Source: a virus (taxonomy: Duplodnaviria > Caudoviricetes). Taken from it: a DNA stretch of 43,441 nt. The notes under the pieces were generated by a model that was not told the DNA's origin, did not search any database, and saw nothing but the letters and a program-made list of their open reading frames with translations. The stretch covers positions 1-43,441 of the IMG/VR virus record IMGVR_UViG_3300047507_000013. One strand, 5' to 3'. Position numbers and translations under genes: made by a program. The first letter of the stretch is position 1. The number at the start of each line of letters is the position of its first letter. Positions 442 through 29,237 of this stretch are shown here, one piece after another.

Positions 442-478
442 AAAAAAAAAGGCGGGAAAGATCTCTCTTCCCCGCCTT
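442..478 (-). terminator. Rho-independent terminator ending the early small-gene operon
   Basis: Minus strand GGCGGGGAAGAGAGATCTTTCCCGCC hairpin followed by T9, about 10 bp after the stop of 488..685. Confidence 0.85.
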
Positions 479-487
479 CAGGCCGGT

Positions 488-1110: not shown

Positions 1111-1249
1111 CGGTCTTTTCCTTTGCCGCTTCGATTTCCCGGATCCGGGCCAGCTCTTGCTTTTCCCGCCAGGTCATCTTCGCGCTCTTTTGCCCGGCTG
1201 CGATCGCAGCCTCTTTTTTCAGCGCCTTTTTCAGGTGTCGGCTTTTCAT
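1094..1249 (-). CDS. Small basic helical hypothetical protein
   Basis: MKSRHLKKALKKEAAIAAG... fills the gap between its neighbours. Start trimmed from the ORF-track call at 1297. Confidence 0.55.
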   Translation of the reverse strand: MKSRHLKKALKKEAAIAAGQKSAKMTWREKQELARIREIEAAKEKTDGRTE

Positions 1250-1254
1250 CGGGT

Positions 1255-1638
1255 TCAATCCTTCCCAAAGAGCCAGGGCTGGGTCTTTGATTTCCAAATT
1301 TGGCAGCCGCCGAATTCGACTTTGATCCGCCGCGGGTCTTCGCCTTCCGGGATCTTCATCCCGGTTTTCTGCAGCAGATGCAACAGGCCGCAGGGTCCTT
1401 CGCCGCCGTAGCCGACTTCGAATCCGTCCGTTTCCAGAATGATCCGGCCGGCAGGATCCGCGGGATCCTGAAATAAAATCTGGGTGACCAGGCCGCAGAT
1501 TTCTTCGTCCGGTTTTTCACGGTGGACCGCAATGCCGAATGGCTGGGGCAGGCAAAGCTGCCCGATTTTCCTCTCGATAAATTCGGTCGAGAGGCGGGTG
1601 ATGCCTTGCGGCATCTTGTCCTTGATAATTCTATCCAT
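1255..1638 (-). CDS. Hypothetical protein (GYGGxGP motif, DUF6166-like)
   Basis: GFEVGYGGEGPCGL resembles the F-x-WGYGGSGP motif of phage DUF6166-type proteins. GGAGG RBS. Confidence 0.65.
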   Translation of the reverse strand: MDRIIKDKMPQGITRLSTEFIERKIGQLCLPQPFGIAVHREKPDEEICGLVTQILFQDPADPAGRIILETDGFEVGYGGEGPCGLLHLLQKTGMKIPEGEDPRRIKVEFGGCQIWKSKTQPWLFGKD

Positions 1639-1652
1639 GATGTACCTCCCGG

Positions 1653-1722
1653 GTCCCCGGCAGGCCCCATGGCCCCGTTTTTCTCCCTCAACGTTAAAGC
1701 TCGGGCAGGGCCTTTCGGCCCC
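1653..1722 (-). ncRNA. Conserved structured leader element, copy E
   Basis: GGGGCC-gaaa-GGCCCT GCCCGAGC tttaa CGTT-GAGGGAGAAA-AACG GGGCC-atgg-GGCCT GCCGGGGAC, then the RBS. Confidence 0.75.
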
Positions 1723-1726
1723 GGTT

Positions 1727-2092
1727 CTAAAGGAGGTTTTTGATCTGATTGACCGCGACTTCGGCGCTATCGTAGGCGTCGTAGCGCAGCATCATTTCCT
1801 TGTCGGCTTCCGTCAGGCTGTTGATGCCATCGGCGATCAAGAGAAGCCGGAGCGTCCGGATTGCAGCTCTCATATTTCGGACCGCCTTTTTAATCTGTCT
1901 GCGTTCCAGGTCGGTCAGCCGAATATTTTTCTCGGCCGCTTTGCTCATCCGGTAGGCATCTCTCCGGGCCGCCAATTCGCCTTCGTGGGCGGGGTCGTAT
2001 CCAGCCGCCTTCGCCCTGGCTTTCCGGTCCTTTGCTGCTTCTTTCGCTCTGGCCTCTTCGTGTCCGGCCGCCGCAAATGATGTCTTTCTCAT
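1727..2092 (-). CDS. Hypothetical basic alpha-helical protein
   Basis: 121 aa with AAGGAG RBS. Preceded by structured element D. Confidence 0.75.
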   Translation of the reverse strand: MRKTSFAAAGHEEARAKEAAKDRKARAKAAGYDPAHEGELAARRDAYRMSKAAEKNIRLTDLERRQIKKAVRNMRAAIRTLRLLLIADGINSLTEADKEMMLRYDAYDSAEVAVNQIKNLL

Positions 2093-2107
2093 CGTCTTTC
2101 TCCTTGC

Positions 2108-2193
2108 GTCCCCGGCGCCGGCGTAAACCGGCCCCCTTTTCTCGCTCAGGGGCTTTGGGCTCGGGCTCCCGGGGCGGTCCTTATTCCGCCCCG
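2108..2193 (-). ncRNA. Conserved structured leader element, copy D
   Basis: CGGGGCGG...CCGCCCCG hairpin, then GCCCGAGC ccaaag CCCCT-GAGCGAGAAA-AGGGG GCCGG-tttacg-CCGGC GCCGGGGAC. Confidence 0.75.
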
Positions 2194-2201
2194 CGTTTCG
2201 T

Positions 2202-2546
2202 TTAAACCTTGAATTCCTTGTAAGGACAATTGCCGATCCAGCCGCAACGTTCGCCGAGAAGCTTTTTCAAAAGCTCCAAAAGCGCCGCGGTATAGTCGTA
2301 GCAGGCGATCCCGTGTCCGCCGCCGTGCTCGAAGATCTCCGCCAGCGCGATCTCGCTGGCTTCATCCACGGTCATGGTTTTCCCGTGGATGGCGATCGTT
2401 GGCTTCTGGCCTTCTTTCCAAAGGGCGGCCAAGGGTAGGCCATCGCCCTTGGGATCGGCGATTCGCTGGGCAGCGATTTTAATAGCAGCCCTGCGCTTCT
2501 GTTCGCCCAGCATGACCTTGATCTGTTTCTTTTCGCTTTCGGTCAT
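2202..2546 (-). CDS. Hypothetical protein
   Basis: 114 aa with GAGGAG RBS. Preceded by structured element C. Confidence 0.75.
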   Translation of the reverse strand: MTESEKKQIKVMLGEQKRRAAIKIAAQRIADPKGDGLPLAALWKEGQKPTIAIHGKTMTVDEASEIALAEIFEHGGGHGIACYDYTAALLELLKKLLGERCGWIGNCPYKEFKV

Positions 2547-2562
2547 TCTTTTTCTCCTCTGC

Positions 2563-2637
2563 GTCCCCGGCAGGATCTTGCGGATCCCCGCTTTTCTCGC
2601 ACAGCGCTTTGGCTCGGGCTGGGGGCCTCCAGGCCCC
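2563..2637 (-). ncRNA. Conserved structured leader element, copy C
   Basis: GGGGCC-tgga-GGCCCC, then GCCCGAGC caaag CGCT-GTGCGAGAAA-AGCG GGGATC-cgcaa-GATCCT GCCGGGGAC. Confidence 0.75.
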
Positions 2638-2643
2638 GTTTGT

Positions 2644-2838
2644 TCAAATTGTCCACCAGATGCGTTCCCAGGTGTCTTTGTCGGCCAGCTCGATCTCTAA
2701 AACTTTTCCGTTCTGGTGATTCCAATCGGTGACTTCGTATTCTAGGGCATCGAGCTTCATTTTCGCTTCGATGTAGGCTTTGGCCGCTTTCAAAGCCTGG
2801 CGTTCGCGGCTTGTCGGTTTTCTTGGCATCGTCGTCAT
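2644..2838 (-). CDS. Small hypothetical protein
   Basis: MTTMPRKPTSRERQALKAAK... with ATGA coupling to the upstream gene. Confidence 0.65.
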   Translation of the reverse strand: MTTMPRKPTSRERQALKAAKAYIEAKMKLDALEYEVTDWNHQNGKVLEIELADKDTWERIWWTI

Positions 2839-3086
2839 TCCCAAATAACCCGGCCCAGGCCGGTCCGGCCCTTGACTAGGCCGGCGTCCCGAAGGACCTG
2901 CTCATGGGCCTTTCGGTTGGCCGTCGCCATCCGGGTCTTTTTCCGGGCTTTGCATTCCGGGCAATCCGGCCGACAAATCGTGTGATACTGGACCGCTTCC
3001 TGCCAGGCCGCGTAATCGCCGCCTTGCTCGAGCGGCTTCAATCCTGAAACCTGTTCGATGTGCTCCAGCCATTTTTCTCTTGTCAT
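2835..3086 (-). CDS. Small hypothetical protein, putative Zn-binding (HxxC..CxxC)
   Basis: HTICRPDCPEC motif and AGGAG RBS. Preceded by structured element B. Confidence 0.75.
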   Translation of the reverse strand: MTREKWLEHIEQVSGLKPLEQGGDYAAWQEAVQYHTICRPDCPECKARKKTRMATANRKAHEQVLRDAGLVKGRTGLGRVIWE

Positions 3087-3100
3087 GATTTTTCTCCTGC

Positions 3101-3177
3101 CTCCCCGGCATCGGCCTTTCGGTCGACCCCTTTTTCCGGCTCAAGGGCTCAGGCTCGGGCTAGGGCCTTTCGGCCCT
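3101..3177 (-). ncRNA. Conserved structured leader element, copy B
   Basis: AGGGCC-gaaa-GGCCCT, then GCCCGAGC ctgag CCCTT-GAGCCGGAAA-AAGGG GTCGACC-gaaa-GGCCGAT GCCGGGGAG. Confidence 0.75.
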
Positions 3178-3182
3178 TCCGG

Positions 3183-3434
3183 TTATTCGATCCGGTGGAT
3201 GATCTGAGATTCAATGCTCGAATTGACGCGCAGTCTGCCAGAATACCAGGCATTGATCGGCGTGATCTTCAGGTTCTGGGCGGGTTTCATTTCCATGATT
3301 CCGTTGTAATCGCTCGCCCTCATGGTGGGCCGGACGACTTCGTGCATCTCATTGATGCTGTACTCCTGGACCTCATGTCCGGCATCCGCTACCGGCGCTC
3401 CCGTGAAGCTGTGTACCAAAAATCTCTTTGCCAT
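3183..3434 (-). CDS. Hypothetical protein, first gene of the early operon
   Basis: MAKRFLVHSFTGAPV... with AGGAG RBS before the ATG at 3434 (trimmed from 3497). Confidence 0.7.
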   Translation of the reverse strand: MAKRFLVHSFTGAPVADAGHEVQEYSINEMHEVVRPTMRASDYNGIMEMKPAQNLKITPINAWYSGRLRVNSSIESQIIHRIE

Positions 3435-3486
3435 TTTTTTCTCCTGCTGGAGGAGGGCGGCGTTTCTCCATCCCTCCCCAGCGCGG

Positions 3487-3588
3487 GTCCCCGGCATCGG
3501 GCTGGCCGGCGGTATTTCTCATCGCCGTCCGGCTCGACCTCTTTTCTCCCTCAGAGTTAAGCTCGGGCTTGGGGGTTTTCCGTCCCCC
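3487..3588 (-). ncRNA. Conserved structured leader element, copy A
   Basis: GGGGG...CCCCC hairpin, then GCCCGAGC ttaa CTCT-GAGGGAGAAA-AGAG, a long variable hairpin, and GCCGGGGAC. An extra hairpin (3446-3482) precedes the RBS. Confidence 0.7.
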
Positions 3589-3904
3589 CTCGTTTTCTCT
3601 TTTGGCTTCGGCCGCCTCTTAGGCGTTTTCCCTTGGGCTTTACCGCGTCCGTTTTCTCGCTCCTCTGCTGGGGTCCCGGGCCTTCAGGGGCTGGGGGATC
3701 CCGATCCTTGGCAAGTTCGCGCTTCGGTCGGCGTCAGGCTTGTGGGCCTTGGCTTTTTTTTCTTGGCCTCTCAGGGCCGGGTCGGTCTTGGTATCCCGCT
3801 CTCTGCGTTTCCCGGTCGGGCCTTCAAAGATCTGTCCCGCCCTCTCCCGGGGGGCGGTCTGGCTCGGCCCCCCTCCCGGGGGGGCCTTGCTAATTGTCAC
3901 CCAT

Positions 3905-3933
3905 ATAATAAAACAAATCGAAACGAATGTCAA
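3905..3933 (-). promoter_or_regulatory. Strong sigma70-type early promoter
   Basis: Minus strand TTGACA (3933-3928), 17 bp spacer, TATTAT (3910-3905), within an AT-rich island. Confidence 0.85.
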
Positions 3934-3947
3934 CCCCCCTGTCAAAT
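3927..3947. promoter_or_regulatory. Candidate operator (TGTCAA direct repeat), copy 2
   Basis: ATGTCAACcccCCTGTCAAAT overlaps the -35 box and matches 365-385. Confidence 0.6.
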
Positions 3948-4015
3948 GGCAAAACGTCGACGATCGTCCAGGTTGCGTTATTTTGGGTTTTCCGGGGAAT
4001 TGTCCAGGACGGGTT

Positions 4016-4055
4016 AAAAGCCCGAAATAGGCCCTAAAGCGGCCCAAATCCGGGC
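4016..4055 (-). terminator. Probable terminator of the late structural operon
   Basis: Minus strand GCCCGGATTTGGGCC...GGCCTATTTCGGGC hairpin followed by TTTT, downstream of the last tail gene. Confidence 0.55.
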
Positions 4056-4137
4056 ATTTCCTGCCTTACTTTAGATTTCGGGCAGAATTATTTTTAATTT
4101 GGCGAAAGATTTTTTTCTTTTTCTTCGGCGCCCCGGC

Positions 4138-4527
4138 TTAAACCAGGAATCCGAAAACCGAAATCTCCCAGGTTTCTGTTGTGGCTGTTGAACCCACAGT
4201 GACATTGATGCCAAACACAAGCCCTGCAATATATCCCACCAGCATGGTCTTCACTGCAGCCTTATTTGTCCAGACATTGGTGATGCCCGTGGCTATCACC
4301 TGGGCAGCTGCAGCCAAATAATCCGTATAGGCTGCAGGCTGTCCAAAACCAGCAGTGGCTGCAGCACCAGCACCAGCTGCCCAGGCCGTCACCCTGATCA
4401 CGATCTCTGTGACGATCATTACCTTCCCGACCGGCACCGTGATCAGCGGCGTGGCCGCAACCGTCTTCGCGTTGATCCCGCCGACCTTGGCCAGCAGAGT
4501 AACAGCGTTTTCTTTTAAATCAGCCAT
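4138..4527 (-). CDS. Small tail-associated beta-rich protein
   Basis: MADLKENAVTLL..., Ala/Thr/Val-rich. GGAGG RBS. Last gene of the tail module. Confidence 0.65.
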   Translation of the reverse strand: MADLKENAVTLLAKVGGINAKTVAATPLITVPVGKVMIVTEIVIRVTAWAAGAGAAATAGFGQPAAYTDYLAAAAQVIATGITNVWTNKAAVKTMLVGYIAGLVFGINVTVGSTATTETWEISVFGFLV

Positions 4528-15490: not shown

Positions 15491-16015
15491 TTAATAATCG
15501 TCTTCGTCGTTGAAAATATTGAAAGGGTCAAAATCCTTTGGGATCTTTTCCGTGGCATCCATGCCTTCCCGGCGATCGATGTTAAAAATCGCGATCGGCT
15601 TCGACGTCGACCAGGACTCGAGCAGGTCCTGGACCGGCGGCGGGATGGGTACCGCGTCCATCATTGATTCCAGATAATCCTCCTGGACGATCCCGGCCCT
15701 GATGACTCCCTGGGCCTGGATCCCCTTCCGGCGATCCTCATCGCCGTATAAAACATGGACGGCCAAATAAAAGGCCATCTCCGCTTGGGCTTTCTGCAGA
15801 ATCAAAAGCTGGGCAGCCGTGGCATGGGCATAATCCGGGAGGCTCCAATTCGGGCTGTAGAAAAGTCGGTTATAGGCATGCATCAGGGCCTTGATTTTAT
15901 AAAGGTCCGCCGAGGCCATGGGTCCCAGGTCATCCCAGGCTTCCGTTTCCAGCCGCTCGTTTAGAAAATAATCGTCCGCGGCGGCGATGTCGACAAACCA
16001 TCCGATCGGGCTCAT
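15491..16015 (-). CDS. Head-tail adaptor protein
   Basis: AADDYF...AWDDL...KALMHA...LQKAQAEMA...IPPPVQDLL pattern. Confidence 0.7.
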   Translation of the reverse strand: MSPIGWFVDIAAADDYFLNERLETEAWDDLGPMASADLYKIKALMHAYNRLFYSPNWSLPDYAHATAAQLLILQKAQAEMAFYLAVHVLYGDEDRRKGIQAQGVIRAGIVQEDYLESMMDAVPIPPPVQDLLESWSTSKPIAIFNIDRREGMDATEKIPKDFDPFNIFNDEDDY

Positions 16016-16016
16016 G

Positions 16017-16613
16017 TTATCCTCCCTTGATCTCCGGCTTTAATTTGATGAGCGTTTCGGGGACGCCGGCGTTATTGCCGACCAGGCCCTGGCTCTCCGT
16101 CCCGATGTAATCCCACCATAAAATTTTTCTGCTTAATTTCGAGGCGGTCTGGAGATAATAAAAATCCGATTCATAAATCGGCCGCAGCCATTCGTGCCGG
16201 GCCGCGAGATAAAGTTCTTTTCTTAAAATAATGTTTTGGCCGGCGATATATCCGAGCTCAATTCTCCGGGCCTTCCAGCGATCGTCCGGCGGACAAATCC
16301 AGCTTTCCCCGTACGCCATCCGGTGGATGATCATGTCCGGGTCCTGGTATTCCACGGCCGCTTTCAGGTCCTTGATAAAATCGGCGGTCCGCAGGCGGTC
16401 ATCGTCCGGAAGGGTCATAACGAAAAGCCCCTCGATTTGCGGCGCCGCTTCGGCAATCAGGCCCATGGCCGCTATTAAACCCTTCTCAATTGTGGGCCGA
16501 AGGAGAAGGTGCTGGACGTCATGGTCCGTCTGAAATAATACTGATTCTATATTTCTCTTTAGGCAATTCGGCCGGGCCGGGTGGACCTGTGTCAAGATCG
16601 TCAGAAATTTCAT
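16017..16613 (-). CDS. GT-A/GT2-like glycosyltransferase
   Basis: LTILTQVHPARPNCLKRNIESVLFQT N-terminus, FVMTLPDDD (DxD) and YESDFYY. Confidence 0.75.
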   Translation of the reverse strand: MKFLTILTQVHPARPNCLKRNIESVLFQTDHDVQHLLLRPTIEKGLIAAMGLIAEAAPQIEGLFVMTLPDDDRLRTADFIKDLKAAVEYQDPDMIIHRMAYGESWICPPDDRWKARRIELGYIAGQNIILRKELYLAARHEWLRPIYESDFYYLQTASKLSRKILWWDYIGTESQGLVGNNAGVPETLIKLKPEIKGG

Positions 16614-16616
16614 TCT

Positions 16617-17174
16617 TTAATCTGCCTTCATAATAAGTCCGATCCCCATCATCCAGCCCCGGATCATGCTGTCCTTTTTGAAAGCGACGAGTGGCCGCTT
16701 GTTGTTTTCCATGATGTCATTCCAAAAATGGAAGGCGCCTTGTTCGGCTTCGTCCTTTTTATAAATGTCGTGAAAGGCGATGATCCCGGTGACCAGCGGG
16801 TCGTATAAAAGATAATCCGTTTTGACGCTCTGGTAACTGTGATCTCCGTCGATGAAAAGAAGGTCGATGGCCCGGCCGGCCAGGTGCTCTTTCAAGGTCC
16901 TGACCGTTTCGGCGCTGTGAGAATCCCCGAGAATGTCTGGGTGAAATTTCGGCTCTATATCGATCCCGATGTATCGGGCGTTTAAAAATGCTTCATAAAA
17001 TCGGCGCTGGTATCCGTTCCAGATCCCGATCTCCACGACCAAGGGCTGGATGATGTCTCTCGCTTCAAAATAGGCGGAAGCGAATTCCAGGAAAAAGCGC
17101 CATTCGCTCATCTCCTGCCCAAATTGATTAGCTGGAAAAGAGGCCCATAAATTGTTGAATTTTTTAAGGTTCAT
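16617..17174 (-). CDS. Class I SAM-dependent methyltransferase (Methyltransf_24-like)
   Basis: VVEIGIWNG, IGIDI, IDLLFIDGDHSY and GIIAFHDI motifs. Confidence 0.88.
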   Translation of the reverse strand: MNLKKFNNLWASFPANQFGQEMSEWRFFLEFASAYFEARDIIQPLVVEIGIWNGYQRRFYEAFLNARYIGIDIEPKFHPDILGDSHSAETVRTLKEHLAGRAIDLLFIDGDHSYQSVKTDYLLYDPLVTGIIAFHDIYKKDEAEQGAFHFWNDIMENNKRPLVAFKKDSMIRGWMMGIGLIMKAD

Positions 17175-17881
17175 ACTCTCCCCCGGTTGTATTCCCAGCC
17201 GCCCTCGATCGGTGGAAGGCGTCTGGCCTTTCTCCTCGAGCTGGTGCCGGCCGCGTCATGGCGGATGAATTCCCGGGGCGCCCCGGTCCAGTTTAATCCC
17301 TTGCCGCTCGAATGACCGAGCCCCGGAAATTCCTTCAGGATTTTTCCTGAAAGCCCTTTTTTGAAAATATCCAGCATGGCCAGATAGCAGGGGGCGCCGT
17401 GATGGACATAAGGATGAAATTTTCTGTAATTCTCCAAATTGATCAATTGAAAATATGGATGAAGATAGGGCATCCATTGCCCGGGCGTGTTGTGTCCGGG
17501 CCAGCCCCATTCGAATCCGTCCCAGGCCGTCTTGTGCTCAATGTATCCGACGCCGTAGGTGTCCGGCTCCATCATCGCCAACATCGCTTCGACCGGGCTT
17601 TTCATCATCTCAATGTCCGAGTCGAAAATGAGGGCGTAGAGGGTTTTCATTTCAGCGATTCCCTTGACCAAGCCGCGGCCATGGCCGATGTTGTAGCCCA
17701 TTGAAAAAATCGTAGTGAATTCGCCGGCGAGCGTTCTAGCATAATTGTAGCAGGGGTCCCTGGGATCCGAGCCGTCGATGATGATGATCGGCATCTCCGG
17801 ATGAAATTTCCGGACCGAATTAAAGGCCCTGGCCAGCAGGTCCGCCGTGTTGTGGGTTACGGTCATGCCGGTGATGTTCAT
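17171..17881 (-). CDS. GT2-family glycosyltransferase
   Basis: VTHNTADLL...IIIIDGS...NIGHGRG...ALIFDSD (DxD). ATGA-coupled start at 17881. Confidence 0.82.
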   Translation of the reverse strand: MNITGMTVTHNTADLLARAFNSVRKFHPEMPIIIIDGSDPRDPCYNYARTLAGEFTTIFSMGYNIGHGRGLVKGIAEMKTLYALIFDSDIEMMKSPVEAMLAMMEPDTYGVGYIEHKTAWDGFEWGWPGHNTPGQWMPYLHPYFQLINLENYRKFHPYVHHGAPCYLAMLDIFKKGLSGKILKEFPGLGHSSGKGLNWTGAPREFIRHDAAGTSSRRKARRLPPIEGGWEYNRGRV

Positions 17882-18591
17882 GAAAATGCCTTCTCCAAAT
17901 TTAGCGAGCCGTTTAGAAAATCGAGGTAAATCTGAAAATCTCTTGGGATCCATTGCCGCAGGACGCGCCGGTCCGGGCTGTCCGTCTTCGGATAAATGGC
18001 CGCCTTGTGTCCGGCGCCGATCCCGGGCCGGCCCGGCAACCCTTTGATTCCCAAATAAAGCGGGTTGTCCTCATCGGAGAAAAGGAATCCCCGGGCTCCC
18101 GCCTTCCTCCAGATCCGCATGTCGAGATAGGTGTCGCCCGTGAGGAGCGCCTGGAATTCCGGCAAAAAGGAAATCTGAAATCCCGTCTCCGCCAGCGAGG
18201 CGTGGCTCCGGTTTTGAATCTGCATGAATTTTCCCGTGGGCAGGTGATAATATTTGCTTTGCAGGATCCCGGCGACCTGGTGGTGCTCTAAAACCGCGTC
18301 CAGGCATTCGGCATATCCGGGGGCATAGTATTCATCGTCCTCGATAACAATAATCCTGTCTCCCTTGATCAGCGGGACGGCTGCGGCCAGGTTCAAAATA
18401 AGCGTCGGCTTCGGTTCTCCCGGCTGGGGCTGCCGGCGCACGTATTCCATGGGGATCCGCGGCTTGAGCGGCGCTTGGCCGTCATCGATGACCAGCCATT
18501 GATCCGGCTTCCGGGTCTGGTTCCTCATCCAGAGCTGGCAAAGGTCAAAAGCCAGGGGCCGGTCTCCGGTGGGGGTTATGGCCGTCAACAT
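17878..18591 (-). CDS. GT2-like glycosyltransferase
   Basis: AITPTGDRP...QWLVIDDG...IIVIEDDEYYAPGY. GGAGG RBS before the ATG at 18591. Confidence 0.82.
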   Translation of the reverse strand: MLTAITPTGDRPLAFDLCQLWMRNQTRKPDQWLVIDDGQAPLKPRIPMEYVRRQPQPGEPKPTLILNLAAAVPLIKGDRIIVIEDDEYYAPGYAECLDAVLEHHQVAGILQSKYYHLPTGKFMQIQNRSHASLAETGFQISFLPEFQALLTGDTYLDMRIWRKAGARGFLFSDEDNPLYLGIKGLPGRPGIGAGHKAAIYPKTDSPDRRVLRQWIPRDFQIYLDFLNGSLNLEKAFS

Positions 18592-18727
18592 CCGTGCCTC
18601 CCGCCGGCTGGGCCGGCTTCCCCCCGCCCGGACCCGGCCTTTCCGCGATCGTATAGGCTCCCGGGCTCCCGGCCGTATCCGCTCCGATCGGCCGTCCTGG
18701 GGCATCCTGGTGCGATTTCTTTTCGGC

Positions 18728-18949
18728 TCATCGGACTCCTATCTGGTATCCGCATTTTATGCATCTTGCCGCTCTGTTAAAGCCGGCCTTGGCCAGCCAG
18801 CAGGGCGCCCGTTTTAAATACATCGGCGTCCCGTCTCTCGGACAAGCCTGGCCGGATAGAGGCAGCCCCAAATCTTCAACCTGCTGGGCCGGCGTCCGCT
18901 TTGGCAATTCCCGTTTCGGCAGCAGCTTCAGATTGCTTGTCGAAAGCAT
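18728..18949 (-). CDS. Small Zn-ribbon-like protein
   Basis: CPRDGTPM...C...RCIKCGY motifs. GAGGAGG RBS before the ATG at 18949. Confidence 0.6.
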   Translation of the reverse strand: MLSTSNLKLLPKRELPKRTPAQQVEDLGLPLSGQACPRDGTPMYLKRAPCWLAKAGFNRAARCIKCGYQIGVR

Positions 18950-19676
18950 CCAGGACCTCCTCCGCCGTTTTGAATTCAAAGCAGCGCAGGCCGCTTGTCG
19001 GGTTCAAATTTATGACCCGGATCCCCTTCGCCTGGAGCTGGGGCGCCAGGACCTCGAAGCCTCTCCGGAAGCTCTTGTTCGGCCGGCCGGAAAATTTGCC
19101 CGGGTAGCCGTTGTGAAAATGGGTCGGACCTTCGTCGTGCATGTCGAAGCCCAAAAGGTAGACCGGGTTGGCGGCGAGGCAAATGGCGAGCTGCAGGGCG
19201 CCGTATCCGGAATTGTTGGAGCTGTAGATCCCGGTCTTCAATCCGGCCGGGAATCCCACGAGGCCGGCGCTCCGGATGTAGTGGACGTCTTCGCCGAAGG
19301 GGCTGTTGAGTGCGTCTAGAAAAATCCGGGCTCCGGCGAAGGCCGAGAAACTCCCGGCTTTGTATTTCTGGCACCATTGATAAAAAGGAAAATCCATGGA
19401 AAACATCAAGTCTGCAAAGGGGGCGAATTCAAAGGCCCGATTGATGGCGATCGTCCGTCGGCCGCGGAGCCGCTCGAAATTGAATCCAGTCAGGCTGGGG
19501 CCGCCTCCAATGAGGAAGCAGGGCTGGCCGGCCCATTGCCCGTCGTGGAGGATCTCGCTGATGTGTTTCTTGGTTCCCCGTGCCAGGATCCAGGCCGCTT
19601 CCATTCCCTGTCTCCGGCTTCTCAAAATTTTGTTGACGTTATAATCGCGGGTCGTGATCGGCGGTCCGGCGTACAT
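18876..19676 (-). CDS. Maf/DUF115-like (MptE-like/sialyltransferase-like fold) putative glycosyltransferase
   Basis: CFLIGGGPSL, TIAINRA, NNSGYGALQLA, VYLLGFDM...HFH and VINLNP motifs. Confidence 0.78.
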   Translation of the reverse strand: MYAGPPITTRDYNVNKILRSRRQGMEAAWILARGTKKHISEILHDGQWAGQPCFLIGGGPSLTGFNFERLRGRRTIAINRAFEFAPFADLMFSMDFPFYQWCQKYKAGSFSAFAGARIFLDALNSPFGEDVHYIRSAGLVGFPAGLKTGIYSSNNSGYGALQLAICLAANPVYLLGFDMHDEGPTHFHNGYPGKFSGRPNKSFRRGFEVLAPQLQAKGIRVINLNPTSGLRCFEFKTAEEVLDAFDKQSEAAAETGIAKADAGPAG

Positions 19677-19692
19677 CGGATTCTCCTTTTGA

Positions 19693-19721
19693 AAGAGAGG
19701 CGGGGGAGGAAGCTCCCCCGC
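19693..19721 (-). terminator. Hairpin (probable leaky terminator) after the major capsid gene
   Basis: 9-bp stem GCGGGGGAG/CTCCCCCGC followed by an imperfect U-tract, CTCTCTTTC. Confidence 0.55.
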
Positions 19722-26696: not shown

Positions 26697-26881
26697 TTTT
26701 TTATTTTTTCGGGCGACGCGTGCTCATCACACCAGTCCGGCTTACGGGTTCTGTCTGTGGCCGATACCGAGCGCCGCCCGTCCTTTGTCATCAGTTCGTC
26801 CATTCCCCTGGCCATCGCAGCCGCGAAAGCGAGTCTATCCTCAGCAAATATTTGTCGGTTCGTTTTTTTCTTTCCGTTCAT
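26693..26881 (-). CDS. Small hypothetical protein
   Basis: 62 aa with ATGA overlaps at both ends. Confidence 0.55.
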   Translation of the reverse strand: MNGKKKTNRQIFAEDRLAFAAAMARGMDELMTKDGRRSVSATDRTRKPDWCDEHASPEKIKK

Positions 26882-27945
26882 TTTCTGTATCCTTTGATCG
26901 GCGTTAACCGCGTGAAATCGAAAATCCAGGGCCTCTCCGCGGCCAGGCCCTTCAGCCCCCCCGCCGCGGCGATCGCTTCCTGGATCCTGTTCAGGCTGGT
27001 CTTATATTTCAGCGCCAGGATGATCTCTCCGCCCCGCCAGTCGATCATGAATTGACGCCAGGCTTCAGGCCAAATATGGCGCAGGAATCTATATCCACTA
27101 TTTGTGTATTGCGATCCGCCGCCGCAGAAAACGCAGCCGATCGTCTGTGCTCCTAGCGCCCTGGCTGGGTGCCGGACGATCGGGTGCGCTTTTATGTAGG
27201 CGGCGATGTCGGCATCCGTCCAGCCGGTCAGCGGGTTACAAATCCAGAGCTTATCTCGCTCCTGAAAAAAAAGGCTCCCGTCCTTGATCGTCCTCATGCC
27301 GCGCAGGTTATCATCCGCCTGACCGCGTTTTCCTGTAAATTGAAGCGTGCAACCGAGGTTCCGCGCTACTGCCCGGGCCGGCCCAATCTTCATCGCCCTG
27401 CAGCATTCCGAAACGTTGAGCCTGAAGCCCAAGCCCGTGTGTCTTTGATTCCAGAATCGCGCCGCCGTCTTCCCCAGCATCGGCCAGCCGGTCTTCTCCC
27501 ATTGCTCGAGCGGCGTTTGCCGCGCCCTGGCGATCCGCAGGTCCAGCCCTTCATATCGTTTCTTGTAATAATGGTTTAGGGTGTCTCTTATGAATGTCTC
27601 GCTTCCCGGGTACTCCATTTGGGTGTCGGCCCAGATAATGGTGGGCGCATCGACGACCGTTTCTAAAACCAGATCTAGCAGCACCAGGCTGTCGTCGCCT
27701 CCGGAAAAGGCCAGGCAGGTCTTATCTTTTGGCTGCCAGCAGTCGACCTTCCGAATCATCTTCTCGGCTCGCTTGATTTTCGCCGTAAAGCCTTTCTCGC
27801 TCCAGCCGGGGGTCTCCGGCCCCAGCCATACCGGGATGATGATCGTCTCCTGCTCGCTTAAAATCGCCCGGACCAGGCCCTCCTGGATCTTCCATCCCGT
27901 CCTGTCCAGGACCGTCCTCTCGGCAATGTCCTTGAATTCTTTCAT
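26878..27945 (-). CDS. Phosphoadenosine phosphosulfate (PAPS) reductase-family protein
   Basis: PP-loop LAFSGGDDS, ECC..MK..P, G.R..D...R, NPLTGWTDADI and GCVFC. Start trimmed to the ATGA-coupled ATG at 27945. Confidence 0.85.
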   Translation of the reverse strand: MKEFKDIAERTVLDRTGWKIQEGLVRAILSEQETIIIPVWLGPETPGWSEKGFTAKIKRAEKMIRKVDCWQPKDKTCLAFSGGDDSLVLLDLVLETVVDAPTIIWADTQMEYPGSETFIRDTLNHYYKKRYEGLDLRIARARQTPLEQWEKTGWPMLGKTAARFWNQRHTGLGFRLNVSECCRAMKIGPARAVARNLGCTLQFTGKRGQADDNLRGMRTIKDGSLFFQERDKLWICNPLTGWTDADIAAYIKAHPIVRHPARALGAQTIGCVFCGGGSQYTNSGYRFLRHIWPEAWRQFMIDWRGGEIILALKYKTSLNRIQEAIAAAGGLKGLAAERPWIFDFTRLTPIKGYRK

Positions 27946-29237
27946 TCCTTTTTCCTTTTGGGGATCTGACAACGAGTCTTTGTCGCCCGGATCTGGGCCT
28001 CTGTCTGGCCGCCCAGCGCCGCGAATCGGCGGATCATGACGTCGACATAGGGCGGATCGATTTCCATCGTCCGGCAAATCCGCCCCTCCCGCTCCGCGGC
28101 GACCAGCGTCGATCCGGATCCTCCGAATGGATCCAGGACCGTCTCTCCCGGCCGGCTCGAATTCCTGATGGCTCGCTGGACCAGGGCCAGCGGTTTTCGC
28201 GTCGGGTGGAGCATCGTCGAGCTCCCCCGCCTGGCAATCTCCCAGACGTCCGCTTCGTCCCGGATGTCCAGGAAATAATGCTTCCCGCCCTTCCAGCCAT
28301 AAAGGATCGGCAGGGCCTGCTTTCGCTTCGAAGCCTGGGCCTTGAGCAGCATCTCATGCTTATGGTGGTAATCGCTCCAGCCGAGGCTCGAGGCGTTCTT
28401 GATCCAAATGATCGGCGTCGAGAAAGTCATCCCCGTGGCTTTGATGGCATAGATGAAAGCCGGGTAGGAGCTGTAGCCGCTGCAGATGTAAAAAACGCCG
28501 CCGGCCTTGGTATGGTCTTTCATCCGGGCCATGAAGGCCAGGCTGAATTCGATGAATCTCTCTTCGCTCACGTTGTCGCCGGCGATCGGGCCGTATTTCG
28601 TCCCTTCGTATTTGACGTTGTACGGCGGATCCGTGAAGACCAGGTCCGCTTTCTTGTCCCCCATCAGCGCTGCATAGGCCCATTCCTTTGTCGCGTCGCC
28701 ACAGAGGATCTTGTGTTTCCCGGCCAGGAAAAGATCGCCCGGCCGCGTCTCGGATTTCTTCTCCGCCGGCGGCACCATGTCTTCCCGGGTCTGGTCAAAA
28801 CGATTCGGGCCGAATTGGTTTAAAAGGTTGTCGATCGAAATGGGCTTGCCCAGCTCGATCTTGAAAAGTTCGGTCTTGATTTTATCCTTGGCTTCAAATA
28901 AAAGCTCCGCCAGGTTTTGATCATCCCAGCCGGCGATGTTGTCGTTGTCGGAGAGGGCGTACTTCAATTTCTCCGCGTCGGTTGGGGCCTTGACGATCGA
29001 AATGCCGGCGCTCAGGGCGCCCAGGTCCTGGAGCGCCCGGAGGCGCTGGTTCCCGCCCAGGACAATGTATTTCCCGCCTTCCCTGCAGCAGACCAGCCGC
29101 TTGTAGAGCCCGAGCTCGAGGATCTGGGCTTTGAGCCGCTCGAAGTCGGCTTTCTTGACCATGGTCTTCGGGTTTTTCTTCCAGCCGATGAGGTCATGCA
29201 GCGGGACGGTTTTTTCTTCGGCGGTTTTGATCTCCAT
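27942..29237 (-). CDS. ParB-N domain fused to a beta-class DNA (N6-A/N4-C) methyltransferase
   Basis: KNPK..VLGGNQRLRAL (ParB-like), then DLVFTDPPY, HPTRKP and VLDPFGGSGST. Confidence 0.92.
   Translation of the reverse strand: MEIKTAEEKTVPLHDLIGWKKNPKTMVKKADFERLKAQILELGLYKRLVCCREGGKYIVLGGNQRLRALQDLGALSAGISIVKAPTDAEKLKYALSDNDNIAGWDDQNLAELLFEAKDKIKTELFKIELGKPISIDNLLNQFGPNRFDQTREDMVPPAEKKSETRPGDLFLAGKHKILCGDATKEWAYAALMGDKKADLVFTDPPYNVKYEGTKYGPIAGDNVSEERFIEFSLAFMARMKDHTKAGGVFYICSGYSSYPAFIYAIKATGMTFSTPIIWIKNASSLGWSDYHHKHEMLLKAQASKRKQALPILYGWKGGKHYFLDIRDEADVWEIARRGSSTMLHPTRKPLALVQRAIRNSSRPGETVLDPFGGSGSTLVAAEREGRICRTMEIDPPYVDVMIRRFAALGGQTEAQIRATKTRCQIPKRKKE

Follow-up and report, generated by a model that had tools for sequence, protein, structure and literature searches.

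Why does a phage set the same folded RNA in front of one early gene after another? The question is posed by an uncultured phage, viral record IMGVR_UViG_3300047507_000013, a stretch of 43,441 nucleotides (nt), hereafter the window. Five copies of an element of ∼55–60 nt lie on its minus strand, within an operon of small early genes (e1–e9). The element is a real, covarying and uncatalogued pseudoknotted RNA. It is probably a self-cleaving ribozyme missing from current catalogues, a candidate built as a twister-like pseudoknotted three-way junction.

Five copies in one early operon

The initial annotation had reported five copies of a multi-stem RNA on the minus strand, one in every early-operon gap that is not coupled. 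Both points hold. A composite pattern finds five matches in the window and none in 100 dinucleotide shuffles. The intergenic gaps of the operon measure 96, 5, 97, 109, 88, 5, −17 and −4 nt, and one copy occupies the leader slot and each of the four long gaps, with none at the four coupled junctions. The annotated positions were right as to location and too short at one end: the element extends 3 nt further 3′, since the bases after GCCGGGGA pair with the loop. On the minus strand, GCCCGAGC starts at 3568, 3160, 2619, 2166 and 1706, and GCCGGGGA at 3495, 3109, 2571, 2116 and 1661. The copies and their parts are as follows, with P0 denoting the hairpin upstream of each core.

3571–3588, minus strand: copy 1, P0
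3484–3568, minus strand: copy 1, core (three-way junction); loop 3543–3552; pseudoknot GGG/CCC with 3485–3487; 43-nt variable hairpin
3446–3482, minus strand: additional hairpin, lying 3′ of copy 1 and ahead of the e1 Shine-Dalgarno; z −3.64; not in the relative L002
3162–3177, minus strand: copy 2, P0 with a GAAA loop
3098–3160, minus strand: copy 2, core; loop 3133–3142; pseudoknot GCC/GGC with 3099–3101; followed by e2 (start 3086)
2622–2637, minus strand: copy 3, P0
2560–2619, minus strand: copy 3, core; loop 2593–2602; pseudoknot GCG/CGC with 2561–2563; followed by e4 (start 2546)
2170–2193, minus strand: copy 4, P0
2105–2166, minus strand: copy 4, core; loop 2138–2147; pseudoknot GCG/CGC with 2106–2108; followed by e5 (start 2092)
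1707–1722, minus strand: copy 5, P0 with a GAAA loop
1650–1706, minus strand: copy 5, core; loop 1680–1689; pseudoknot GGG/CCC with 1651–1653; followed by e6

Copy 1 alone carries a long variable hairpin (3496–3538) together with the extra downstream hairpin, both with GAGAAA in their loops; the same slot of L002 has neither.

Fold and covariation

Twelve copies from four phages were aligned: five from the window, four from G001 (record L002), one from G002 (L012) and two from G003 (L023). The copies are related, and the window and L002 have some slots in common, which leaves about eight independent slots; the shuffle counts below are not probabilities. The alignment yields one fold. An invariant helix of four base pairs (bp), CCCG/CGGG in 12 of 12 copies, continues past a bulged A into two further pairs. 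A covarying stem of 4–5 bp closes a 10-nt loop, and a variable hairpin and a 3-bp pseudoknot between the loop and the 3′ tail complete the element. RNAalifold recovers exactly the three-way junction proposed in the initial annotation. The loop-closing stems covary, as had been claimed, and the first pair of the variable hairpin in the five window copies is GU, GU, GU, GC and GU, again as described. One G003 copy exchanges the GC/GC pairs for CC/GG, a compensatory change.

The pseudoknot was not part of the earlier description and emerged in this analysis. Loop positions 3–5 pair with the three bases 3′ of GCCGGGGA in 12 of 12 copies from the four phages. The pairs are GGG/CCC in four copies, GCC/GGC in four, GCG/CGC in three and GGC/GCC in one (copy L023a, where an A follows), with independent compensatory changes at two of the pairs. 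All 36 pseudoknot cells are paired, against a shuffle mean of 67% and 17–36% in slid registers. With the pseudoknot included, 94.9% of 215 cells are paired and 10 of the 18 pairs are altered on both sides (0 of 500 shuffles); a model-fitted alignment gives a similar result for pairing and covariation. Covariation thus supports the earlier claim of selection on RNA structure.

Conservation extends beyond the helices. Nine nucleotides that are unpaired in the model are nevertheless invariant across the 12 copies. Loop positions 8–9 are A-A throughout, and the base that flanks the pseudoknot opposite loop position 2 is always a purine. The core is pseudo-symmetric, with G-A-NNN-R on each pseudoknot strand.

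The flanks are equally regular. In 11 of the 12 copies a perfect GC hairpin, P0, stops 0–3 nt short of the first G (3.9% of random positions), and the element sits between the upstream stop codon and the Shine-Dalgarno. No conserved P1-type pairing joins the two flanks: the 5′ flank is P0 and the 3′ flank is the Shine-Dalgarno.

Searches for homologues

The initial annotation had not recognised a known RNA here, and the Rfam scan it called for agrees: the whole window gives no match at cut-off. At E ≤ 10 over positions 1200–4200 there are four chance-level matches and none to twister; the best riboswitch score (NiCo, 19.2 bits against a cut-off of 64.5) overlaps P0.

Homologues do exist, as seven further copies in three viral records. 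A first pattern scan of viral sequences gave 30 loci, of which three were real (L002, L012 and L023), and further scans (10, 11, 22 and 64 loci) led back to the same three records only. Pattern scans of the genome collection (43, 1 and 25 loci) returned only chance matches, among them L236, which by eye is coding sequence. A loose pattern run over 8 of 64 metagenome parts gave 119 loci, none real. With one eighth of the metagenome collection scanned, the true family could far exceed 12 copies. Searches with model R1 turned up no further copy in 30 records, related or candidate (the weak matches L010 and L274 lie in coding sequence), in 12 further records, 13 loci and 85 loci (best 33.6 bits, with broken pairs), or in 151 genomes of the class of a metagenome-assembled genome (MAG) with related capsids; in none of these sets does the result imply absence. 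A sequence-free descriptor run over 1.54 Mb recovered 11 of the 12 copies with one spurious match, and 50,697 phage records gave no match.

The publications searched, for the 2026 preprints the main text, show no description of the element, and an earlier anonymous listing is possible. A 2023 search for new twister permutations is reported to have found none (PMC10085705), and the motif strings are absent from the one supplement of that paper that was searched, as they are from the searched supplementary files of PMC10690425. The main text of a 2026 preprint on ∼150 new ribozyme classes, in the parts consulted, mentions neither phages nor pseudoknots, and the corresponding parts of a 2026 intergenic atlas mention neither twister nor phages. 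The arrangement of RNAs between phage genes is already known; the RNA itself is uncatalogued in Rfam.

Two side observations came from these scans. Five viral contigs with chance pattern matches (L318, L330, L341, L353 and L358) have in common a sequence that looks non-coding, is conserved yet varying, and may pair at its ends. In another phage, two identical structured 95-nt intergenic repeats precede small genes (L312, 3880–4540, plus strand); model R1 does not match them.

Known ribozymes in the equivalent slots of related phages

Related phages, gathered by way of their capsid protein and an early gene in common, gave 35 records that were searched for known ribozymes. Twister-P5 occurs in five of them (above cut-off in three) and type II hammerheads in two, whereas 14 control genomes hold neither. 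Known ribozymes are present in 2 of 4 element-carrying records and in 5 of the 31 others, many of which are fragments. They lie in the corresponding early operon.

Individual genes show the exchange. The orthologue of e6 in G008 (41% identity, E 4e-27) is preceded by a twister-P5 instead of the element (56.4 bits, cut-off 37.6). A DUF932-like gene, from a group in which one of six members matches the DUF932 family, is preceded by the element in G003 and by above-cut-off twister-P5 RNAs in G013, G008 and G035. In G002 the RNA upstream of this gene is a twister-P5 below cut-off (24.9 bits, E 8e-5), and in G006 and G015 no recognisable RNA lies upstream. The two kinds of RNA also coexist. Six ribozyme-sized gaps in the G003 early operon hold four type II hammerheads (two above cut-off) and two elements, and one operon of G002, read across the record ends, combines one element with one twister-like RNA. 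Among related phages, then, the element changes places with twister and hammerhead ribozymes.

The relatives' known ribozymes place their own P1 or stem III 1–2 nt before the cut, and 0 of 21 have a P0-type hairpin. Several irregular RNAs sit among them. Directly after the e2 orthologue of G009 (L279, 17590–17703, plus strand) lies what by eye is a twister-P5 with a long inserted P1, with no Rfam score at E ≤ 0.5. Below-cut-off hammerhead or twister variants occupy regular ribozyme slots at L292 3628–3699 and 4921–4991 (minus strand), L288 872–935 (plus strand) and G042 61877–61930; one of the hammerheads has an altered CUGA core.

Gene e5 and one element are missing from L002 (window 1727–2193 against L002 1560–1660). 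The L002 copy in the first slot resembles window copy 3 (85%) more than window copy 1 (60%), and across slots the copies seem mosaic. Element copies thus appear to move between slots, probably as a side effect.

Comparison with known RNAs

Twister is the closest known fold, a ribozyme that cuts at N^A-A with a general-base G and leaves a 2′,3′-cyclic phosphate and a 5′-OH. It has 4-bp P2 and P4 helices around a junction, with optional P3 and P5 (PMC5408937). Its P1 is described as conserved but dispensable (PMC5408937, PMC11662667), any base is tolerated at −1, changes at A1 or A2 abolish or nearly abolish activity, and activity is sensitive to defects in T2 (all PMC11662667). The element reproduces much of this plan. 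CCCG/CGGG and the covarying stem stand in the places of P2 and P4 around the junction, and the variable hairpin sits at the place of P5. The 10-nt loop begins with G, engages positions 3–5 in a T1-like pseudoknot with a G-A-N-N-N tail beside a purine–purine pair, and has a purine at position 6; a 10-nt L4 and a GAgGG strand are also found in the Rfam twister consensus. An upstream P0 and the use of corresponding gene slots in relatives add to the likeness with twister-P5.

The best helix fit, mapping B, reads the element as a type P1 twister with P0 and P5, in which CCCG/CGGG is P2, the 10-nt loop is L4, T1 falls at positions 3–5 and the tail G-A-NNN is the 3′ strand of L1, its G and the following A invariant. 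The alternative mapping A treats the loop as a P1-less L1, with G, A and A-A invariant; it requires an open L4, with P2 at 4 bp in some copies and 5 bp in others. Unlike twister, the element lacks P1 and T2, its loop ends in R-G-A-A-A rather than A-A-G-C-C, and in mapping B its 5′ strand reads N-G where twister has N-A-A. No twister model scores it: RF03160 matched in neither the one record nor the five records searched at E ≤ 10, RF03154 matched in none of five, and RF02684 falls on no element. The 5′ GC was considered as a twister T2 strand and rejected, as the CC/GG copy shows that it pairs with the opposite strand. We guess that T2 is replaced by docking of the loop A-A on the GC/GC pairs. 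On these grounds we do not class the element as a twister, although it probably works like one.

Type II hammerhead arrays (RF02276; PMC3088659) offer a second likeness, as repeats between small early genes in the order stop codon, element, Shine-Dalgarno, with a hairpin directly before the predicted cut; in G003 the two are interleaved. The element differs in its junction, in a pseudoknot that springs from the central loop and in lacking a CUGANGA or GAAAC core in hammerhead order. Rfam finds no hammerhead in the window, and the CUGANGA/GAAA core is absent from the 12-copy alignment.

The predicted fold also resembles the class 1 exoribonuclease-resistant RNAs (xrRNAs) of flaviviruses, whose three-way junction has a pseudoknot as its latch around the 5′ entry (PMC8374639). 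Class 1 xrRNAs further have a ring of 15–16 nt encircling the 5′ end and block exonucleases. The shared features are the junction and a loop-to-3′-tail pseudoknot near the 5′ entry; the helix order and the bacterial phage intergenic setting are different, and there is no Rfam match.

Twister-sister and pistol are likewise small, phage-associated self-cleaving RNAs, and pistol also has a loop pseudoknot. In pistol that pseudoknot is of 6 bp and comes from the P1 loop, and twister-sister has none, so both are unlike the element; neither model (RF02681 and RF02679) matches any of the four carrier records at E ≤ 1. Readings of the element as a hepatitis delta virus (HDV)-like, hairpin, pistol, twister-sister or cyclic di-GMP (c-di-GMP) RNA were dropped on the lack of a model match and a general comparison of topology.

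A candidate self-cleaving ribozyme

The ribozyme reading is favoured because the element takes slots that twister and hammerhead ribozymes hold in relatives. From its fold, placement and interchange with ribozymes we infer catalysis and a cut site. A more specific proposal, held tentatively at a little under an even chance, is that the element represents a new structural class of self-cleaving ribozyme, with a twister-like scaffold that lacks P1 and T2, a different active site (N^G at the 5′ edge or GA^AA in a P1-less loop), and interchangeable use with twister and hammerhead for punctuating phage early transcripts. Among the functions floated in the initial annotation, a processing site that splits the polycistron into smaller mRNAs is the one that replacement by twister and hammerhead favours, likely acting by self-cleavage. 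Precedent exists in prophage polycistrons, where hammerhead arrays were shown to cleave in vitro and were proposed to process the transcript (PMC3088659); the purpose of such arrays was still open according to a 2019 review (PMC6765202).

In the proposed mechanism, a single boxA-like site in the leader would keep the nascent early transcript elongating, and each element would cut itself, splitting the long transcript into one- or two-gene mRNAs. The first-choice cut is N^G at the 5′ edge, just behind P0 (3569/3568, 3161/3160, 2620/2619, 2167/2166 and 1707/1706), because P0 would give the element the hairpin-then-cut layout of the relatives' ribozymes. Second in line is a cut within the loop, GA^AA (3545/3544, 3135/3134, 2595/2594, 2140/2139 and 1682/1681). 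About half of our expectation falls on the 5′ edge and about a third on the loop, the remainder lying elsewhere. After cleavage, P0 would cap the 3′ end of the upstream mRNA. The downstream mRNA would begin with a 5′-OH, its 5′ end capped by the entire knot next to the ribosome-binding site. Folding of the predicted loop-cut products gave no consistent exposure of the Shine-Dalgarno (unpaired 0.25–0.97).

Several observations weigh against self-cleavage. In the best-fitting mapping B, the position of the twister general acid varies (A in eight copies, U in three and C in one) and the next base is G. T2, two G-C pairs between L2 and L4 in twister, has no counterpart, as loop positions 8–9 are A-A and the GC pairs with the opposite strand. 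The Shine-Dalgarno lies 0–4 nt 3′ of the knot in 9 of 12 copies, against 14–27 nt in the relatives' twisters, and P0 is reported to reduce twister cleavage in vitro (PMC11662667). Only 12 copies from four phages are at hand, and because some slots of the window recur in L002, invariance is overstated. Single-sequence folding is not significant (z +0.14 to −1.86), with the junction the minimum free energy structure in three of five copies; structural support comes from covariation, not from folding energy.

Alternative explanations

The main rival, which we judge unlikely though well short of negligible, is a non-catalytic shell derived from twister. A host endonuclease or 5′–3′ exonuclease would cut or trim near P0, and the knot would serve as an xrRNA-like barrier that stabilises the downstream mRNA. 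A junction latched by a pseudoknot is indeed the xrRNA plan (PMC8374639), the ribosome-binding site abuts the knot, and mapping B lacks both the twister A-A dinucleotide and T2. Such a shell, however, would have to coexist with autonomous ribozymes and replace them one for one in shared slots, and the dense invariant purines of loop and tail exceed the obvious needs of a barrier.

Translational control is a less probable alternative, in which a phage or host protein would bind the knot beside the Shine-Dalgarno and co-regulate the five genes. The close spacing in 9 of 12 copies and the conserved GAAA-containing loop fit this idea. Yet the element is single in G002, mixed with hammerheads in G003 and placed before unrelated genes, and tblastn of the nine early proteins gave no match in the G002 and G003 stretches examined. 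Moreover, the Shine-Dalgarno lies outside the pseudoknot, and P0, directly after the upstream stop codon, would be left unexplained.

A ligand sensor, either a riboswitch or a glmS-like cofactor-dependent ribozyme, was among the earlier suggestions and now looks very improbable. A compact pseudoknotted junction with many invariant unpaired bases by a ribosome-binding site would suit one, but no Rfam riboswitch matches, and no conserved alternative pairing occludes the Shine-Dalgarno. The downstream genes are unrelated and unannotated, and their orthologues in relatives take ligand-independent ribozymes.

The boxB/nut idea of the initial annotation, in which boxB/nut- or put-like antitermination sites are repeated along the operon, is remote: GAAA-type loops and a long operon with GC hairpins speak for it, but one separate leader hairpin with a boxA-like site is already present and is common to relatives with twisters or hammerheads, coding-strand terminator-like sites between the genes are weak only, and a pseudoknot touching the ribosome-binding site is needless for the role. 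Equally remote, and largely refuted as a primary role, is a set of DNA-level recombination points for gene cassettes with incidental RNA structure; the loss of e5 with one element and the cross-slot resemblance in L002 suggest that cassette exchange may occur as a side effect, but identical stretches reach only 8–9 nt, and compensatory changes in four helices including the pseudoknot, with G-U pairs, are RNA signatures that exchange leaves unexplained.

Genome setting

With its 127-nt terminal overlap, the window represents the whole 43,314-bp genome of a tailed phage, and it carries terminase, tape-measure and ParB-like genes. Sequencing runs that contain at least half of the sampled window words are freshwater sediment metagenomes, with no RNA run among those listed; the contigs compared gave no sign of transcript ends. 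Capsid relatives in the genome collection are confined to two contigs of one Aminicenantes MAG, a weak hint at the host. The early operon runs on the minus strand from a promoter at 3933–3905 to a terminator at 479–448, and e1 starts at 3434. Its features other than the elements are these.

3905–3933, minus strand: sigma70-type promoter, TTGACA-17-TATTAT (11 of 12 consensus positions); kept in L002; drives the early operon
3823–3833, minus strand: boxA-like site AGATCTTTGAA (one per operon) with a hairpin directly 5′ of it; fits the boxA consensus of B. subtilis (PMC13753749)
488–3434, minus strand: nine small early open reading frames (ORFs), e1–e9, of no known family, interspersed with the five elements
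1255–1638, minus strand: gene e6 (127 aa), behind copy 5
448–479, minus strand: intrinsic terminator at the end of the early operon

None of the nine early proteins matches Pfam or PHROGs, and the earlier label of a host-takeover operon is not borne out. The boxA-like site agrees with the B. subtilis rrn boxA consensus as given in PMC13753749, and host Nus antitermination at this site is likely, judging from sequence. The hairpin and boxA-like site recur in the leaders of G001, G003, G008 and G009. Across five related phages, the early promoter is closely followed by a hairpin and then a boxA-like site of the GATCTTTGAA type (window 3823–3833, minus strand; L002 3300; L279 16737; L280 9723; L292 5795). 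The leader itself (3590–3900, minus strand) is 310 nt of non-coding sequence with several short hairpins and 88% identity to the L002 leader; it folds no better than shuffles (z −0.43), and relatives too have long non-coding leaders.

Just upstream of the early promoter in G013 and G015 lie two genes (L282 ∼18400–19500, L285 700–2200) that by eye resemble those of 3-deoxy-D-manno-octulosonate (KDO)-pathway enzymes. Elsewhere in the window, an ORF block at ∼15500–19700 (minus strand), between the head and tail genes, includes one ORF with a sialyltransferase-like family match, and a DNA methyltransferase gene adjoins a gene with a 3′-phosphoadenosine-5′-phosphosulfate (PAPS)-reductase domain (26878–29237, minus strand).

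Significance

New classes of small self-cleaving ribozymes are rare, and earlier ones were found as unfamiliar structured RNAs in the positions of known ribozymes. The element is a strong candidate for another, on the fold and slot comparisons made here, and it comes with five natural variants in one genome and two sharp cut-site predictions. Cleavage would make it either a novel architecture for catalytic RNA or the first twister-like core found in nature to lack P1 and T2, and would illustrate rewiring of the twister fold. Should cleavage fail, a non-catalytic knot standing in for ribozymes in their slots would imply that phages need a protected mRNA end more than they need a cut, which would bear on the role of phage ribozyme arrays.

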